From positions 1 to 53,246 of the forward strand of contig JACRDL010000009.1 in NCBI GenBank assembly GCA_016218625.1: a stretch of DNA of 53,246 bases, given 5' to 3'. Position numbers and translations under genes: made by a program. This document shows, piece by piece, positions 21,310 through 44,081 of this stretch. The notes under the pieces are model-generated. The model was not told where the DNA came from. It was given only the letters and a program-made list of their open reading frames with translations, and did no database searches. Within the stretch, counting starts at the first letter, position 1. Every line of letters begins with the position of its first letter. This stretch comes from Elusimicrobiota bacterium. GTDB taxonomy: Bacteria; Elusimicrobiota; UBA8919.

Positions 21310-22338
21310 ATGCTTAAATTATCAACGGCCATAGGCAGTATGCCTCACAATGACAGGAAAAAAGCAATTGAGATTATTATGAAAAATCTTGCTATCCCTA
21401 TTTGGCCGCAACTTCCTAAAATAAGTTTCAGGGAAAGTATGTATGCACAGTATTCTGAGGGTTTCCCCTGCCTTGAAGTTTCTGAAAAAAACCAAAAAAT
21501 ATTTTTTGATACCAATGGCGATGTGCTTCTATCATTGGAAAAATTCTATGAAAAAATTATTGCTGACGATTTAGAGTATTTTAAGATTTCACAAGATTAT
21601 GCTGCTGGTTTGTATGAATTTATTTCTCAACTTTCCACTTTCCACTTCCCACTTCCCGCTGTTAAAGGGCAGATTACAGGACCAATTACCTTCGGTTTGA
21701 AGGTAACCGATAAAAATAACCGTTCCATATTCTATAACGAGCAATTCACCGATGTCGTGGTTAAAACGCTGACGATGAAAGCCAGATGGCAAATACGGCA
21801 ATTAAAAATTAAAAATGAAAAATTAAAAATTATTATGTTTATTGATGAACCGTATCTGTCTGCTTTTGGCAGCGCTTTTACGCAGGTTTCCCGTGAAGAA
21901 GTAATAAAATATCTTAACGAGGTTTCTGACGGTATTCACAAAGAACATTCACTGTCAGGGGTTCACTGCTGCGGAAATACCGACTGGTCGGTTTTAATGG
22001 ATACGAACATTGACATTATTTCCTTTGATGCTTACAGTTTTTTTGACGGATTAATTCTCTATCCCGAAAAACTGAATAAATTTTTCGAAAGAGGCGGAGT
22101 GTTAGCTTGGGGAATTGTGCCGAGTTCCGAACTAATAAATTCTGAAACGGTGGAATCATTGGCGGAAAATTTCACGGACAAAGTTCAACAACTTATTAAA
22201 AAGGGCATCACCGCCGAAGCGGTTAAAAATAGGTATATAATAACTCCATCCTGCGGCGTTGGCTCTCTATCGGAAGAACTTGCGGAAAAAATTATTGTGA
22301 TGACAAAAGATGTAGCGGAAAGTTTATTAAAAACATAG
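21310..22338 (+). CDS. Core single-barrel MetE-like methionine synthase (MesB-like)
   Basis: IGSMPH, WPQLP, GQITGP, IDEP, HCCG, TPSCG; 342 aa. Confidence 0.75.
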   Translation: MLKLSTAIGSMPHNDRKKAIEIIMKNLAIPIWPQLPKISFRESMYAQYSEGFPCLEVSEKNQKIFFDTNGDVLLSLEKFYEKIIADDLEYFKISQDYAAGLYEFISQLSTFHFPLPAVKGQITGPITFGLKVTDKNNRSIFYNEQFTDVVVKTLTMKARWQIRQLKIKNEKLKIIMFIDEPYLSAFGSAFTQVSREEVIKYLNEVSDGIHKEHSLSGVHCCGNTDWSVLMDTNIDIISFDAYSFFDGLILYPEKLNKFFERGGVLAWGIVPSSELINSETVESLAENFTDKVQQLIKKGITAEAVKNRYIITPSCGVGSLSEELAEKIIVMTKDVAESLLKT

Positions 22339-33426: not shown

Positions 33427-33501
33427 CAATTACAGAAGGAAAAAGGAAGATGGAAGATTAAAGTCGTTAATTTGCAATTTTCCTTTTGCAATTTGTAATT
33501 G
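33427..33501. repeat. Degenerate heptamer inverted repeat
   Basis: caattacagaaggaaaaaggaagatggaagatt / aatttgcaattttccttttgcaatttgtaattg. Confidence 0.65.
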
Positions 33502-33509
33502 ATTTTATC

Positions 33510-35339
<1,830 letters not shown>

Positions 35340-35364
35340 AAAACGCAATTTTTTAAAAAAGTAC

Positions 35365-35393
35365 TTGACAAAATGCAATTTTTTAGGTATAAA
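35365..35393 (+). promoter_or_regulatory. Sigma70 promoter of the Flp/Tad cluster
   Basis: TTGACA-17-TATAAA, with TATAAT at 35394. Confidence 0.65.
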
Positions 35394-35402
35394 TATAATG
35401 GG

Positions 35403-35573
35403 ATGATAGGGCTGATAAAAAATCTTGTTAAATCTGAAACTGCTGCTGCAGATACCGAGTATTCTCTGCTCATTCTTTTACTTGTTGCTTCAATATTAGC
35501 ATTAAGAGTTTTTTCAACCGTGCTGAATGCTGTTTTGGTTAAAGCCGCTGTAAGGATAACAGGCGTTGTATAA
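35403..35573 (+). CDS. Flp-like pilin 1, divergent
   Basis: SETA/AADTEY plus hydrophobic helix; 56 aa. Confidence 0.65.
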   Translation: MIGLIKNLVKSETAAADTEYSLLILLLVASILALRVFSTVLNAVLVKAAVRITGVV

Positions 35574-35749
35574 TGAAGATTACAAATTATAAATTACGAA
35601 TTACGAATAAAGGTCAGTCAATGACGGAATATCTGCTTGTTGCTTTTTTGATTTCGTTTGCGGTTTTTCAAGCGGTTAATACATTCGGAAAAGCACTCAA
35701 TGTTGCTTTTTTACAGGCAATAAATAATATTGCCGTCAACATAAAATGA
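35573..35749 (+). CDS. Flp pilin 2
   Basis: MKITNYKLRITNKG/QSMTEYLLV..; 58 aa, read by hand. Confidence 0.85.
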   Translation: MKITNYKLRITNKGQSMTEYLLVAFLISFAVFQAVNTFGKALNVAFLQAINNIAVNIK

Positions 35750-35759
35750 GGTAAATAAA

Positions 35760-35945
35760 ATGAAAACGATCCGTTTTAAAAAAGGTCAAGGGATGACTGA
35801 GTATGTATTGATGATTTTTCTTATTGCTTTTCTCGCATATATTGCTGTTGAAACATTCGGTAAAAAAATAAGATACGGATTTCTTTCCGCCGGGAACAAG
35901 GTTTCTGGAATTTGCAATGCCGAAACACCGGGGATTTATAAATAA
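35760..35945 (+). CDS. Flp pilin 3
   Basis: KKG/QGMTEYVL plus hydrophobic helix. Confidence 0.88.
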   Translation: MKTIRFKKGQGMTEYVLMIFLIAFLAYIAVETFGKKIRYGFLSAGNKVSGICNAETPGIYK

Positions 35946-36011
35946 TTTTTAAGAATATATCTAATCAAAATGAAGTTCATTTAATTTGTATGAAAGGGGG
36001 GTGAAAAAAAG

Positions 36012-36182
36012 ATGTTAAAACGGTTATTGAAGAACGAGAGAGCGCAGGGAATGACAGAATATGTTCTGGTTGTATTTCTTATTGCTCTTCTCGCATTTGT
36101 GGCGGTACAGTTGTTCGGCGGCAAAGTGAAAAATGCGTTTAATAAAGCCGGAACAAAACTTGACCAGGCAACGAAGAAGTAA
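36012..36182 (+). CDS. Flp pilin 4, probable major pilin
   Basis: MLKRLLKNERA/QGMTEYVLVV..FGGKV; very strong SD; 56 aa, read by hand. Confidence 0.88.
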   Translation: MLKRLLKNERAQGMTEYVLVVFLIALLAFVAVQLFGGKVKNAFNKAGTKLDQATKK

Positions 36183-36201
36183 TATAATTAGGTTTTTTTA
36201 A

Positions 36202-36253
36202 TGTACGGAGATTCGCTTTCTGTGTAATATACGCAATGGCGAATTTCTGCACA
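36202..36253 (+). other. Long hairpin after Flp pilin 4, possible mRNA-stability or attenuation structure
   Basis: tgtacggagattcgc .. gcgaatttctgcaca. Confidence 0.55.
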
Positions 36254-36300
36254 GGTTTTGCTTATCTGAAAAAGTATAAGAAATTTTTTTATTTCTGTTT

Positions 36301-36468
36301 ATGAACTATTTCAATAAGAAAGGTCAAGCAATGACCGAGTATGTATTGGTTCTTATGCTATGCGTCATAACCGCATGGGTAGGAACCAATTTTTTTCAGA
36401 GACGATTGAAAAATGTCTACAGCGGTGCATCCCGTACCCGTGCAGGTGTTCAAGGAATGTATCCGTAA
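36301..36468 (+). CDS. Flp pilin 5
   Basis: MNYFNKKG/QAMTEYVLVL..; 55 aa, read by hand. Confidence 0.85.
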   Translation: MNYFNKKGQAMTEYVLVLMLCVITAWVGTNFFQRRLKNVYSGASRTRAGVQGMYP

Positions 36469-36497
36469 AAAGGCAAGTTAAAAGTTAAAGGTTAAAA

Positions 36498-36992
36498 GTG
36501 AGAAGTAAAAAACTAAAAATTATTACTCGCTACTCGCTACTCACTACTCGCTCAAAAGGTCAGACACTTATTGAGTTTGTTCTGATTGCTATTATTTCGA
36601 TTGCGCTTATTTTCGGAGTAATGGACCTTGCGCGGCTTTCATGGACGATGTTTCATCTACACGGCGCCGCATTTGCCGCCGCCAGAGCGGAAGCAGTCAG
36701 AAAAAGCGGATTTACGGCGGCAAACTATGTTACGATGAGAACGCTCGGCGGACACTGCCTTGTTTCTGTAAATAAATCGCATGAAGTACCGTCGCATAAT
36801 CCACCGTGGACAGTTCCTGGAGTCGCATTAAAGAAAGATGATGTAAGAATTTACGCTATTAACGCAACTGTTACATATTTATATAGACCGCTTTTTGCAG
36901 CCGGAGCATTTAAAACAGGTGTTATACCATTAAAGGTTTCGTCACGAATGCAGACGGAAATCCCGAATCCGATACCGCAATCAAGAAATTAA
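36498..36992 (+). CDS. TadE-like pseudopilin
   Basis: KG/QTLIEF, hydrophobic helix, AAFAAAR, VTYLY. Confidence 0.85.
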   Translation: MRSKKLKIITRYSLLTTRSKGQTLIEFVLIAIISIALIFGVMDLARLSWTMFHLHGAAFAAARAEAVRKSGFTAANYVTMRTLGGHCLVSVNKSHEVPSHNPPWTVPGVALKKDDVRIYAINATVTYLYRPLFAAGAFKTGVIPLKVSSRMQTEIPNPIPQSRN

Positions 36993-36994
36993 AA

Positions 36995-37867
36995 ATGAAA
37001 AAATTACTTTTTACTCACTACTCGCTACTCGCAACTCGCTCAAAGGGACAAATTCTTCCGCTTGTTGCTCTGACGGTGCTGGTGCTTTCTATGTTTTCGT
37101 TTCTTGTTTGGAATCTCGGTATGCTTGAATTTAACCGTCAGAAAATGCAGACCGCCGCCGATGCCGCCGCAATATCCGCCTTAAGATGCCGCGCAGCTTT
37201 TTACAATGCGATGGGAATTTTACATGATACAATGCATCTTGATACCATATGGATGGGGCATAATATAAAAAAAGGTGTTATGGAAAAAAACCAGATTCCG
37301 TTATATGAAGCAAATCTTACAGCGCTTAAAAAACTGAATTGGGGTGCTGGCGGTGGGTCCGCATTAACAGCAGGAAGTGCCGCAAAATTAAATGGTGCTG
37401 ATAAACCTTACGGTTTCGGAGGGTTTGTTAAGGGTGGTAAAGGAACAGGACTTAAAGGCAGAAAGATGACATTTTATTCAGGTAATGTTAAGGTTATATA
37501 TCCAGTACCGCCTTTTATACTGGTACTTCCGCCATATAAAAAAAAGACATATAATCCTGCTTATTATTGCAGAACCTGGGAAGATAAATACAGAAAAGCC
37601 CAGCCGAAACAGGAGTTTATGTGGACGGTGAAAAAAAAGAATCAGACCTTTGCAACATCTTTGATTGGGTTAAAAAAACCTGCAGAGGCACGGGCAGTTG
37701 CACAGGCGAAAATTTACTTAAATGTGAGAGGAAATGCTATCGGACACAACGGCGGTTTCCCGAGAAATAAAAAAGAAGGACTATGGGGTTGGGGTCCAGA
37801 ACCATATGCCGGTTATCCGCAGTTTGATGCACGGCTTGTGCCTGTTCGCGGAGTAATGCTACATTAA
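36995..37867 (+). CDS. TadG-like pseudopilin
   Basis: KG/QILPL, MQTAADAAA. Confidence 0.82.
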   Translation: MKKLLFTHYSLLATRSKGQILPLVALTVLVLSMFSFLVWNLGMLEFNRQKMQTAADAAAISALRCRAAFYNAMGILHDTMHLDTIWMGHNIKKGVMEKNQIPLYEANLTALKKLNWGAGGGSALTAGSAAKLNGADKPYGFGGFVKGGKGTGLKGRKMTFYSGNVKVIYPVPPFILVLPPYKKKTYNPAYYCRTWEDKYRKAQPKQEFMWTVKKKNQTFATSLIGLKKPAEARAVAQAKIYLNVRGNAIGHNGGFPRNKKEGLWGWGPEPYAGYPQFDARLVPVRGVMLH

Positions 37868-37869
37868 AA

Positions 37870-38373
37870 ATGAAACCACAGATTACACAGATAAAAAACA
37901 TAGATTACACAGATGTCATTGCGAGGGCGAAGCCCGTGGCAATCTTGAGATTGCTTCGTTTCACTCGCAATGACAAAAAAGGTCAGGCGTTTGCAGAGTT
38001 TATTATCGCACTAATTGTGCTTCCGTTGTTTATCACAGGTACAATTACAATTGCGAGAATGTTTATTGTTAATATGCGGCTTCATCAGGCGGCAAGACAC
38101 GGTGCGTTTCTGATGGCGACGCAACGGGTTACAAAAACTAATATGCTGGACGAAGTAAAAAAATACTTTAGTGCGGGGTATCCTAAATTTGAGACATCAA
38201 AAATCAAAATTGTACATAAAAGCAAACGGGTCGGCTTGATAAAAGGTGACGAAGTAACCGTTAGTTATACGATGAAGGTTTTTGATTTAAGCCGTCTTTC
38301 GTTCTGGAAGGGCACACCGAAAATAGAAAAAAGATTCACACAATCTGCCGTTTGCGGCAGGGCTGCTTTTTAG
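37870..38373 (+). CDS. TadE-like pseudopilin with repeat-derived leader
   Basis: KKG/QAFAEF, QAARHGA, VTVSY. Confidence 0.82.
   Translation: MKPQITQIKNIDYTDVIARAKPVAILRLLRFTRNDKKGQAFAEFIIALIVLPLFITGTITIARMFIVNMRLHQAARHGAFLMATQRVTKTNMLDEVKKYFSAGYPKFETSKIKIVHKSKRVGLIKGDEVTVSYTMKVFDLSRLSFWKGTPKIEKRFTQSAVCGRAAF
37914..37975. repeat. REP/RPE-like palindrome
   Basis: tgtcattgcgag..gcaatcttgagattgc..ctcgcaatgaca. Confidence 0.9.
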
Positions 38374-38376
38374 AGT

Positions 38377-38470
38377 ATCGGAATTTCAAAGGCGCCACAG
38401 AAAGACACAGAAAAAAACACAGAAATAACTTCAGTGTAATTCTGTGAAATTCTGTGGCTAATATCTTGAT
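38377..38470. repeat. CACAGAA/TTCTGTG element, copy 2
   Basis: Near-identical to 5335-5425. Confidence 0.9.
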
Positions 38471-38858
38471 GAAAATCAGCGAAATCTTTTTAATTGTTTT
38501 TATTATGACACTTTTTATAGGTGTCTATTTTTTTGTGCAGAAAAAAATTATAAATCCCCCGGAGAAAAAAATTGAAACTGTTATTCAGCTGAAAGTTGAT
38601 GTTATGGAACAGCAGATGGGGTATTATGAAAAAAATGCGGACAAGCTAACTGCACGGGAAGAGAAAAAAATCAAAAAAATGCAGAAGGAAATTGACGCCG
38701 CAAAACCCTACATTAAACAGGCAGAGGACTACTACCAAAAAGAATACGGATACATATTAAAACTCCCACTGAAACAGCAGGAAAAAGAAATGAAAAAACT
38801 TGTTGAAAAAAAACGAAAAGAAACAGAAAAATACAAAAAGTACTTGCCGAGCCATTAA
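38469..38858 (+). CDS. Membrane-anchored charged helical hypothetical protein
   Basis: One TM followed by K/E-rich helices; ATG overlaps the element end. Confidence 0.65.
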   Translation: MKISEIFLIVFIMTLFIGVYFFVQKKIINPPEKKIETVIQLKVDVMEQQMGYYEKNADKLTAREEKKIKKMQKEIDAAKPYIKQAEDYYQKEYGYILKLPLKQQEKEMKKLVEKKRKETEKYKKYLPSH

Positions 38859-38918
38859 TTAAAATCCATAAATTTTTGCTTGACTTTTATTATTTTTTTT
38901 ATATGATATTTACAGTTT

Positions 38919-38994
38919 CAGGATTAAGGATTAAGTCGCTTCGCTTTAAGAATTAAGTTTTTGCTTAATCCTTACAACTTATTACTTAATCCTG
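38919..38994 (-). repeat. GGATTAA/TTAATCC heptamer element, reverse orientation
   Basis: Close to the reverse complement of 47007-47090; contains gtcgcttcgc. Confidence 0.88.
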
Positions 38995-39011
38995 ACATTA
39001 ATGGGGGTTTT

Positions 39012-39593
39012 ATGGATGATAAACCGAAATACAAAAGGAGAATTGTAATTATCAAAAGGGCGCTGCAGTTTAAGTATATTGCTGTTGTTCTTATTGCTAT
39101 GGTTCTGGTCGCTTTTACCGTCGGATGGGATGTCTATTATACCGTAGGTCGCGCAATTATGGAATTAGAAGCCCCGGGTTTATATCCGATTATGGTTAAA
39201 ATCAACAATCTTATGCTCGGAAAACTTGCGGTTCTTCTGGTAATTGTCTTCATAATTGCCATTTTTGTTTCGCATAAGTTTGCAGGTCCCATATTTAAGT
39301 TTGAGCGTTCCTGCGATACGGTTGCCGAAGGTGACCTGACTTACAGGGTGCATTTAAGAAGCGGCGACGAACTTATTGAACTTCAGAATAAATTTAACGG
39401 AATGGTTTCGGAAATTCAGAAAAAAGTTTCAGCAGATTATGAATCGGCAAAAATCACAGGAGTTAAACTTTCGGCAATTTCCGCAAGGCTTTCACAGAAA
39501 AATGTATCGCCCGCTGAACTTTCCGAAATTTTGGGGCAGATTGACGGATTAATCGCCCAATTGAATAAAATATCGTCGGGCTTTAAGATTTAG
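39012..39593 (+). CDS. Two-TM HAMP-domain protein
   Basis: LQFKY, two TM segments, SHKFAGP..GDL..LRSGDEL; start moved out of the repeat. Confidence 0.78.
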   Translation: MDDKPKYKRRIVIIKRALQFKYIAVVLIAMVLVAFTVGWDVYYTVGRAIMELEAPGLYPIMVKINNLMLGKLAVLLVIVFIIAIFVSHKFAGPIFKFERSCDTVAEGDLTYRVHLRSGDELIELQNKFNGMVSEIQKKVSADYESAKITGVKLSAISARLSQKNVSPAELSEILGQIDGLIAQLNKISSGFKI

Positions 39594-39600
39594 ATTAAAC

Positions 39601-39732
39601 CAGGATTAAGGATTACTTTCAGGATTAAGAATTAAGTTATAAGGATTAAGAAAAGACAAAAAAAACTTAATCCTTAAAGCGAAGCGACTTAATCCTTACT
39701 ACTGTTCACTTACGACGTATCACTTAATCCTG
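39601..39732 (+). repeat. GGATTAA/TTAATCC heptamer element
   Basis: caggattaaggatta.. / cttaatccttaaagcgaagcgacttaatcc..cttaatcctg. Confidence 0.88.
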
Positions 39733-42803: not shown

Positions 42804-42904
42804 CCCCGCTCCTACTAAATTGTTGTTTGAGAAAATCTGCTTATTGAAAATATCAAATTCTAATTTTGTCAATTTTACTGGTTTTGCAGGAGGGGCGGGG
42901 TGAA
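42804..42904. mobile_element. Miniature CCCCG..CGGGG element at the argC/argJ junction
   Basis: tgaa|ccccgctcct..aggaggggcgggg|tgaa. Confidence 0.75.
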
Positions 42905-44081
42905 TTTTCCGAAAGGTTTTTTTGCTAACGGGTTGCATTGCGGGATAAAAAAAAACGGGAAAAAAGACCTGTCTATTTTTTATTCCGAAAAACCATCTGT
43001 TGCGGCCGGCGTATTCACGAAAAATATTTTTAAGGCGGCGCCCGTGATTATTTCACAAAAAAATATAAAAAATAAAATACATTGTATTGTGGCTAATTCT
43101 GGTTGTGCTAATGCTTGCACGGGTGAAAGGGGAATTGGTGATGTAAAAAAAATATGCGAGTTGACTGCGGATAAATTAAATGTAAAACCAGAAAATATTT
43201 TGGTTGCTTCAACCGGTGTGATTGGTCAGTATCTACCGATGGAAAAAATTGAAAACGGCATTAGGAAATTGTGTTTATATATTCCACCAACTAACCGACC
43301 GAAATCTGCTGTTGAAGGCATTATGACCACAGACACATTTCCCAAGGTTGTTTCTTCTACCTTCTACCTTCTACCTTCTACCCGCTGTACTATTTGGGCT
43401 TGTGCAAAAGGTTCCGGAATGATTGAGCCGAATTTGGCGACAATGCTTTCTTTCATTTTGACAGACGCGCAAATTACAAAAGAAGCATTAAGCCGTGCCT
43501 TGAAAATTGCGACTGAAAAAAGTTTTAATTGTCTGACTGTTGACGGAGATACATCAACTAATGACACAGTTTTTGTTCTTGCTAACGGAGCTGCAAAAAA
43601 TAAACTTATATCTGACGGTAAAAACTTTCAATTATTTTGCGATAAGTTAACTGCTGTTTGTATTGAACTTACAAAAATGCTTGCCAGTGACGGTGAGGGT
43701 GCGACAAAACTAATTGCCATAAATGTTAGAGACGCTAAAAATATCTGTGATGCAAAAAAAATTGCAAAAACGGTGGCAAATTCTCCGCTTGTTAAGACGG
43801 CTATTTTTGGAAATGACGCAAATTGGGGTCGCATAGTTGCTGCAATCGGAAGAAGTGAAGTAATGGTTGATTCAAAAAAAGTTGATGTTTCTTTCAGTAA
43901 TCTCTGTGTCTTCAAAAAAGGTTGCCCTGTTAGTTTTTCGGAAAAAATTGCAAGAAAAATTATATTACAAAAGGTTGTCTCTATAAATATAAACTTGAAT
44001 AGCGGAAAAGAGTATGCAACCGTTTATACATGCGATTTCAGCGACGGTTACATAAAAGTCAACGCTTCATATAGAACATGA
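42900..44081 (+). CDS. argJ: Bifunctional ornithine acetyltransferase
   Basis: NSGCANACTG, STGVIG, TTDT, KGSGMI..ATML, DTSTND, DGEGATK. Confidence 0.95.
   Translation: MNFPKGFFANGLHCGIKKNGKKDLSIFYSEKPSVAAGVFTKNIFKAAPVIISQKNIKNKIHCIVANSGCANACTGERGIGDVKKICELTADKLNVKPENILVASTGVIGQYLPMEKIENGIRKLCLYIPPTNRPKSAVEGIMTTDTFPKVVSSTFYLLPSTRCTIWACAKGSGMIEPNLATMLSFILTDAQITKEALSRALKIATEKSFNCLTVDGDTSTNDTVFVLANGAAKNKLISDGKNFQLFCDKLTAVCIELTKMLASDGEGATKLIAINVRDAKNICDAKKIAKTVANSPLVKTAIFGNDANWGRIVAAIGRSEVMVDSKKVDVSFSNLCVFKKGCPVSFSEKIARKIILQKVVSININLNSGKEYATVYTCDFSDGYIKVNASYRT

Follow-up and report, generated by a model that had tools for sequence, protein, structure and literature searches.

Repeat DNA in the leaders of pilin-like genes of an Elusimicrobiota bacterium: probably tolerated copies of two genome-wide repeat kinds

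Why should the leader peptides of a pilus gene cluster be written in repeat DNA? The question is raised by a 53,246-nucleotide (nt) stretch of DNA from an uncultured groundwater Elusimicrobiota bacterium (assembly GCA_016218625.1, contig JACRDL010000009.1), here called the window, which is contig C106 of a 1.81-Mb genome (G000; 124 contigs, 38% GC). At positions 35403-38373 of its forward strand lie eight small pilin-type genes, comprising five Flp-like open reading frames (ORFs), two TadE-like genes and one Tad/TadG-like gene (Table 1). The original prediction was that four of the eight leaders are made of repeats that end just before the cleavage site, and Tandem Repeats Finder (TRF) and the translations bear it out: repeat DNA lies in frame between the start codon and the conserved K-G/Q site (a slash marks the cut) of Flp2, TadE1, TadG and TadE2. 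We argue below that these four leaders are probably permissive windows in which two kinds of short repeat, both found across the genome, lie in frame and are tolerated.

Repeats in four of eight prepilin-type leaders

TRF lists 68 rows in the window, 18 of them with a period of 7. Three of the leaders (Flp2, TadE1, TadG) contain heptamer arrays, and the fourth (TadE2) contains a longer unit followed by a palindrome. The TadG array, which had been placed from position 37005, starts at 37012 according to TRF. The leader stretches of TadE1 and TadG are 82% identical over 50 nt, and every leader repeat stops 6-9 nt short of the cleavage codons GGN/CAR. The mature parts of the eight genes contain a single, weak TRF row with a 15-nt unit (36584-36612). 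The palindrome of the TadE2 leader folds at -31.9 kcal/mol (z -4.2), with equally good folds in 0 of 200 shuffles. For the heptamer leaders, RNA structure does not exceed that of shuffles in Flp2 and TadG (z -0.02 and 0.07, respectively) and is weak in TadE1 (z -1.0); a hairpin reading was dropped for these three.

The genes themselves are recognized with variable confidence. The two TadE-like genes and the Tad/TadG-like gene exceed the Pfam cut-offs (22.9 bits for TadE, 22.3 for Tad), the Flp_Fap matches of two small ORFs are weak and fall below theirs (32.2), and three of the small ORFs have no Pfam match. Seven of the eight genes show a class III signal-peptide layout, i.e., a basic leader ending in G or A, and six of these seven continue after the cleavage site with xxxxE[YF] and a hydrophobic helix. 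The cleavage contexts read KG/QSMTEY, KG/QGMTEY, KG/QAMTEY, KG/QTLIEF and KG/QAFAEF; the TadG-like protein reads KG/QILPLV, without the Glu. The DNA of the first small ORF is conserved upstream of Flp2 in relatives. We identified one match to the prepilin peptidase family Peptidase_A24 (77.3 bits, G000:C44:4285-4617), beside type IV pilin genes and on another contig than the window, and saw no separate TadV-type gene in this genome, which is 86% complete.

Table 1. Genes and repeats of the pilin-type cluster (window coordinates; TRF, detected by Tandem Repeats Finder)
Feature	Position	Strand	Details
Flp-like small ORF, first of eight	35403-35573	+	No N-terminal repeat; no Pfam match; TEY-hydrophobic motif
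Flp2 prepilin	35573-35749	+	Leader MKITNYKLRITNKG; G codon 35612-35614; Flp_Fap 23.3 bits, below cut-off
(ATTACAA)4.3 array, Flp2 leader	35579-35608	+	86% matches; TRF
Flp-like prepilin	35760-35945	+	Short leader MKTIRFKKG/Q, no repeat; leader conserved in G001 and G003
Flp-like prepilin	36012-36182	+	No repeat; Flp_Fap 25.5 bits, below cut-off
Flp-like prepilin	36301-36468	+	Leader MNYFNKKG/Q, no repeat
(AAGTTAA)6.9 purine-rich array	36475-36522	+	Across the TadE1 start codon; TRF
TadE-like pseudopilin 1 (TadE1)	36498-36992	+	Leader MRSKKLKIITRYSLLTTRSKG; G codon 36558-36560; Pfam TadE 29.3 bits
(TACTCGC)4.1 array, TadE1 leader	36524-36552	+	90% matches; TRF
Tad/TadG-like protein (TadG)	36995-37867	+	Leader MKKLLFTHYSLLATRSKG; G codon 37046-37048; Pfam Tad 39.3 bits; orthologues in 5 relatives
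(TACTCGC)4.1 array, TadG leader	37012-37040	+	86% matches; TRF
TadE-like pseudopilin 2 (TadE2)	37870-38373	+	38-residue leader; G codon 37981-37983; Pfam TadE 29.4 bits
22-nt unit, 1.9 copies, TadE2 leader	37873-37914	+	90% matches; TRF
One copy of the dispersed composite element	37873-37975	+	CACAGAT cluster (37873-37914) and palindrome CATTGCGAGG...CTCGCAATG (37914-37975)
Intergenic hairpin of CACAGAA/TTCTGTG repeats	38394-38458	.	Downstream of the pilin cluster; -28.1 kcal/mol, z -7.3

Heptamer arrays and palindromes across the genome

We called an array strict when it had at least 4 units with at least 90% unit-to-unit identity, after removal of low-complexity runs. Under this test G000 contains 183 arrays of period 7, compared with 3, 0, 1, 46, 0, 6, 1 and 0 at periods 4, 5, 6, 8, 9, 10, 11 and 12, respectively, and 7 is also the commonest TRF period genome-wide (562 of 2440 rows). 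Period 8 is over-represented too, period 10 less so. Merging left 173 arrays in 52 unit families, headed by GGGAAGT (21), CCGAAGT (16), AGTAAGT (16), TCAGAGT (14) and GGTAAGT (13). The unit contains AGT on one strand (AGT or ACT) in 144 of the 173, and the majority fit NNNNAGT. The arrays have about 4-5 units and span 28-42 nt, with a length peak at 33-37 nt. AGT also forms the three bases directly upstream of 55 of 76 perfect runs, as counted from the listing of seven families.

The arrays concentrate in N-terminal targeting sequences. Strict arrays reach 2.64 per 10 kb over the first 35 codons and 2.06 in intergenic DNA, against 0.67 in gene interiors and 0.51 over the last 35 codons. Within the first 35 codons, a period-7 TRF array occurs in 20 of the 99 lipobox-like and 5 of the 18 prepilin-like genes, compared with 46 of the remaining 1598. 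Both targeting classes differ from the others (Fisher p of 1.4e-10 for lipobox-like and 1.6e-4 for prepilin-like genes) and not from each other (p = 0.53). Hence, the expected enrichment of repeats in prepilin leaders over other N-termini is present, and lipobox-like signal peptides equal it. The related proposal that the leaders are neutral landing pads keeps its core, since they behave as permissive, repeat-collecting sites whose content differs even between relatives (see below), and loses its restriction to prepilins.

The peptides encoded by the N-terminal arrays follow their base composition. Purine-rich arrays encode KVKSKKLKVKS, GKWEVGS or VQSSEF at the position of the n-region, pyrimidine-rich arrays encode LLLTTYYLLLTTY, FNFTFYIFN or LLPTSYFLLT at the position of the h-region, and a lipobox Cys comes after many of them. 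Arrays are also found in the leaders of two type IV pilin genes elsewhere in the genome (MKTKNLKTTSDFRLPTYG/FTLIELM and MKKLITNYQLPITASKG/LTLIELM). When a purine-rich and a pyrimidine-rich array lie within 60 nt of each other, the purine-rich one comes first (11 pairs, with 0 in the reverse order); the remaining adjacent pairs are of mixed or like composition. Many pairs fold, with z from +1.8 to -7.7, and the idea that n-region and h-region arrays are always the complementary arms of one hairpin was rejected, being true for some pairs only. Arrays of the (ATGAACT) type appear to supply the ATG start (MNYELLT...) of several genes (G000 C11 33126-33154, C46 7157-7181, C109 12793-12824).

Ordinary proteins hold such arrays as well: 84 strict arrays lie within gene interiors, all of them in frame. 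The statement that mature regions are free of repeats is therefore right for the eight pilin-type genes and wrong as a rule for the genome. In enolase, the array encodes RTTYSLPITHYLLPIP, which adds 5 residues to a loop that reads GGFNS-----KTLPVP in the solved enolase 4a3r; PurH has a smaller in-frame array, adding 2 and 1 residues, and ArgJ also carries one in frame. Within the window, in-frame heptamer arrays are found at 43351-43386 in the ArgJ-like gene (42900-44081) and at 21627-21660 in another conserved protein (21310-22338), and the same slots in relatives have other units or none. In the PrmC/HemK methyltransferase, the loop directly ahead of the NPPY motif contains a heptamer array in one Moranbacteria and one Elusimicrobia record (loci L061 and L077) and in G000 (C103 20688-21539).

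The second repeat kind is a composite. The cacagat 9-mers and the palindrome that had been described separately in the TadE2 leader are both there, but together they are a single copy of one dispersed element. Over its entire length it can be aligned to five intergenic copies in the genome (two on C41, one each on C47, C52 and C14), from which it differs by a shorter loop. Full palindromes of this type number 19: 14 lie between genes and 5 inside or at predicted genes, the TadE2 leader included; the 8-mer ends of the palindrome have 163 genome copies. CACAGAW clusters number 125 and are mostly intergenic hairpins, among them the one downstream of the pilin cluster. The summed contig depth in the groundwater metagenome run X1 rises from 6.84 over unique sequence to 8608 at 37925-38025; therefore, the element is common to very many other contigs. 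The indels listed at 37898-37900 and 37927-37931 stem from other copies of the element in other contigs. At gathering thresholds, a single tRNA is the sole Rfam match of the entire window, and 35300-39100 gives none at E up to 1. A larger composite, (AGTAGGG)n with a GC-rich palindrome and (CCCACTT)n, is found at G000 C10 5741-5837, C94 31319-31424 and C99 4391-4493, with folding energies down to -53 kcal/mol; one copy forms a lipoprotein signal peptide, and the peptide motif RIAMRPLLL recurs in other predicted secreted proteins. Leaders, signal peptides and tolerant protein loops are together sinks for the two genome-wide repeat classes.

Other heptamer arrays flank the cluster. Two neighboring ones, (AGAAGGA)3.4 and (AATTTGC)4.6, fill the spacer at 33434-33500 up to the true start of glmS (ATG 33510, MCGIVGY). 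The glmS gene (33510-35339) is broken by an in-frame TAA at 35157-35159 (AVAT-stop-VDEL, versus AVATEGDEL in G001), with two G>T differences within 5 nt (GAAGGC in G001 versus TAAGTC), for which a pseudogene, an assembly error or read-through are possible explanations. On the other side, an (AGGATTA)n array at 38918-38995 forms with its complement a hairpin (z -4.5) just upstream of a HAMP-domain gene, and a second (AGGATTA)n array lies at 39602-39652, between 39593 and 39744.

Leaders and array slots in relatives

We compared the orthologous loci of five genomes, two of the same genus (G001 and G003), two of the same family (G004 and G008) and one of the same order (G011); a further relative, G002, has no TadG match and was left out of the leader comparison. 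The mature N-termini are near-identical among the five, and the leaders are not. Identical leaders in relatives would have refuted the original prediction, and its idea of leaders as sinks survives this check. In TadE1, G001 (MKNKKG/Q) and G004 (MKINVHANKG/Q) lack an array, G003 (MNKITNYKLRITNNG/Q) has an (AATTACR) array, the unit type of Flp2 in G000, and G008 has (TATTCGC)4. The TadG leader is MKKLKNKSKG/Q in G003 and MGILKNSKG/Q in G008, and in G004 it is long, with another palindrome of the CATTGCGAG type; the (TACTCGC) array of this leader is absent in G003, G008 and G011. The TadE2 slot is filled by (CTTYCCA)4 in G001, (CTGTTCC)4.5 in G008 and a hairpin insert, GQATPLGFGG/Q, in G004, and has no insert in G003 (MMRKKKG/Q) or G011 (MKKKIKG/Q). 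Finally, G001 retains the Flp2 array with point changes, and G003 has another insert and no such array. Arrays of the (AAGTTAA)n type, as found across the TadE1 start of G000, also precede the start codons of TadE1 in G008 and of TadG in G003. Four pilin genes of G004 (L013, G004:C1:142500-150500) have a small hairpin insert that duplicates the cleavage motif (GQAxPLxHGG/Q, once twice in tandem), so that the peptidase may have two possible G/Q sites there.

A database search with TadE2 extends this picture. It returned 17 proteins at E <=1e-10 among 53 candidates, including the query and one protein without its N-terminus. Read by eye, the leaders of the 14 relatives that have an N-terminus are minimal in 4, heptamer-like in 4, made of other palindromic elements in 3 and otherwise different in 3, while identity to the query in the mature parts is 39-80% (68-80% in the eleven of these 14 that are closest to it).

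The abundance of the heptamer arrays varies between lineages. In the family, strict period-7 arrays per 100 kb number 10.1 in G000, 7.3 in G003, 11.9 in G001, 3.7 in G004, 20 in G008 and 10 in G005. Sampling 40-80 kb from each of several more distant genomes of the phylum gave 0 in G011, G012, G020 and G028, 1.2 in G034 and 4.7 in G017. Single units have their own distributions: among 301 genomes of the phylum, (CCGAAGT)3 is present in 8, one of which is G000, and it is present in 4 of 10 relatives in the family of the window, G001 not being one of them. (TACTCRC)3 occurs at no fewer than 121 loci across many phyla, among them Rivularia and other cyanobacterial records, and occasionally in frame in the PrmC/HemK loop that holds an array in G000.

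Orthologous array slots inside proteins behave in a peculiar way, as the period of 7 persists with a changing unit. In enolase, a loop of constant length across six genomes is built from (CATTACC)n in G000, from (ACTTACC)n in both G002 and G003, and from (ACTTCCG)n in G008, while the G001 loop is non-repetitive and that of G004 half-repetitive. The ArgJ slot of G000 holds (CTTCTAC)n; in G001, G004 and G008 it is filled by (CAGTTCT/CAATTCT)n, and in G003 by (AAAATTA)n. Three further proteins show the same behavior. Over 22 comparisons between an array and a relative (19 mapped arrays), the flanks are on average 86.5% identical and the slots 47%, with 11 of the 22 slots in relatives being 7-periodic. 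Length differences in coding regions appear to keep the frame and not to be whole units (27 versus 33 nt; 37 versus 31 nt). The TadE1 arrays of G000 and G008 differ by an identical C>T change in all four units and share the variant of unit 3.

Probably tolerated inserts, rival readings and their meaning

How could such leaders come about? The requirements of a prepilin leader are just three, namely a start codon, some basic residues and the (S/K)-K-G/Q site, and prepilin peptidase cuts the leader off. An insert or expansion between "MKK" and "KG/Q" would thus cost little, because so few features are needed and the product is removed, provided that the frame is kept and no stop codon arises. 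The inserts are of two kinds: about 4-5 tandem heptanucleotides, mostly NNNNAGT on one strand, which are abundant in this Elusimicrobiota family, and a composite of about 100 nt, with a CACAGAT cluster and a GC-rich palindrome, that elsewhere lies mostly between genes. Lipoprotein and Sec signal peptides could accept them alike, purine-rich arrays giving Lys-rich n-regions and pyrimidine-rich arrays the hydrophobic core. The inserts would then be close to neutral, and the repeats look like tolerated or co-opted DNA, not like an on/off switch of the pilus.

The original prediction had assigned the heptamers a switching role: slipped-strand gain or loss of one 7-mer would shift the frame, turn a pseudopilin on or off and alter the composition of the pilus. 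We regard this as improbable. The unit is not divisible by three and the arrays of three leaders lie in the 5' coding region, where switches are known from contingency loci in the signal-sequence regions of other bacteria, such as the (CTCTT)n of Neisseria opa, the poly-G of pilC and the heptanucleotide repeats of neuO in Escherichia coli K1. These loci share with ours a unit that is not a multiple of three in the 5' part coding for an N-terminal targeting or leader peptide, and neuO even has a 7-nt unit that is read in three frames. They differ from the present arrays, which have only about 4 units and occupy hundreds of sites, essential enzymes included, and for which we found neither length polymorphism nor off-phase alleles in relatives and metagenome contigs. 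The pilin orthologues of the five relatives are all in frame, and between G000 and G001 the Flp2 array shows point changes with no difference in unit number. The assembled contigs of metagenome runs X1, X2, X3 and X7, from which rare variants drop out, list no indel at any of the three heptamer arrays. One X1 contig of 2095 nt covers 35847-37941 with zero differences, and variant contigs of X3 (36475-36690) and X7 (36992-37171) run through the TadE1 and TadG arrays with substitutions but without a single gap. The in-frame arrays of enolase, PurH and ArgJ speak against high instability, and none is broken among the 61 frames that run through an array and stay open for 100 codons or more to either side of it. 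A search for genes frameshifted at arrays gave 4 ORF changes, all of which resemble ordinary gene junctions. Switching by 7-mer gain or loss is thus not supported, and a dedicated phase-variation switch is unlikely.

It is also conceivable, if doubtful, that the inserts are kept for a function, either as a longer or more hydrophobic leader or by tuning translation initiation or coupling, through the TadE2 hairpin or the A-rich (AAGTTAA)n at gene starts. The arrays of lipoproteins themselves form the h-region, the TadE1 slot is filled in two genera with the same internal pattern, a GAGG within the TadE2 hairpin precedes an in-frame GTG (37936) by 8 nt, and (AAGTTAA)n stands ahead of start codons in three genomes. 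Close relatives nevertheless make do with leaders of 6-7 residues without insert (TadE1 in G001, TadE2 and TadG in G003), inserts in one and the same slot are unrelated in sequence across lineages, and the heptamer leaders of Flp2 and TadG lack RNA structure beyond that of shuffles. That the repeats are untranslated intergenic DNA, with true starts downstream or with genes in decay, has a very small probability in our judgment. These repeat families are mostly intergenic, and the TadE2 palindrome contains in-frame GTG and TTG codons (37936, 37945, 37951); even the latest of these starts would leave the right arm of the palindrome translated. No ATG, GTG or TTG lies between array and cleavage site in Flp2, TadE1 and TadG, and a leader is indispensable to a prepilin. 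The reading frames stay open, and the mature sequences are conserved.

Several points weigh against the reading of the four leaders as permissive windows. Translation of the leaders from their annotated starts, and their cleavage, are predictions from sequence. The gene starts come from our own rough caller (1714 genes, 88.7% coding), the lipobox class was set by a regular expression, and the share of 5 in 18 is weakened because the prepilin-like genes were chosen by eye, the regular expression for them being too loose (81 matches). Comparison of contigs alone cannot show length variants of low frequency. In addition, slots that stay 7-periodic while their units change, and the parallel C>T change in TadE1, are not predicted by simple neutral decay, and both patterns suggest that the arrays may be shaped by an active process or be under some constraint. 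We therefore raise, tentatively, the possibility of an active, lineage-limited process that writes and rewrites AGT-anchored arrays of about 5 heptamers at fixed slots. Slot and frame are kept across genera, purine-rich arrays are Lys-rich and pyrimidine-rich ones rich in Leu, Phe, Thr or Tyr, and the order of the pairs is fixed; hence, such a process would mass-produce cassettes of n-region and h-region and be a generator of signal peptides and prepilin leaders, more than a mere source of tolerated DNA. As to the origin of the arrays, our guess is a local reiteration of the 7-mer beside an AGT, by slippage or template switching, with selection for an open frame.

Some repeat systems of other bacteria resemble parts of this one. 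The STRR repeats of cyanobacteria, described as intergenic, include units ending in AGT (CCCCAGT and CAACAGT), and like the arrays of G000 they are tandem 7-mers dispersed in many copies per genome. They differ in that many arrays are here translated, forming signal peptides and leaders, in that the host is an Elusimicrobiota and not a cyanobacterium, and in that neither of these two units is matched by the top units of G000. Rickettsia palindromic elements are selfish repeats that lie in frame within protein genes. By description, the TadE2 leader resembles them in that an ORF tolerates, with its frame kept, a dispersed palindromic element about 100 nt long; the host is another, the insert lies in a leader that is predicted to be cleaved, and most copies are intergenic (14 of 19). 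Among the literature records listed by our searches, none describes heptamer arrays coding for signal peptides or leaders; the search on contingency repeats gave those of promoters and of the neuO type. REP/REPIN and MITE-type repeats are described as short, abundant, hairpin-forming and dispersed, mostly between genes (PMC3116915). The TadE2-type palindromes and CACAGAW clusters are likewise abundant hairpin repeats that are mostly intergenic, whereas the heptamer arrays are tandem and not palindromic, with units that vary by slot, and nothing in Rfam matches.

If the leaders and signal peptides of this family largely consist of 7-mers and palindromes, N-terminal targeting sequences would be the main site at which proteins tolerate and recruit selfish or slippage DNA. 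Gene callers and signal-peptide predictors trained on model organisms may then misplace starts in such genomes. The slot-conserved, unit-changing arrays in enolase, ArgJ and other enzymes suggest a mutational or repair process that has not been described and is accessible by genome comparison; it may also account for the old puzzle of the cyanobacterial heptamer repeats. For the biology of the pilus, these results would mean that the length and the sequence of the leader upstream of K-G/Q are almost freely variable.

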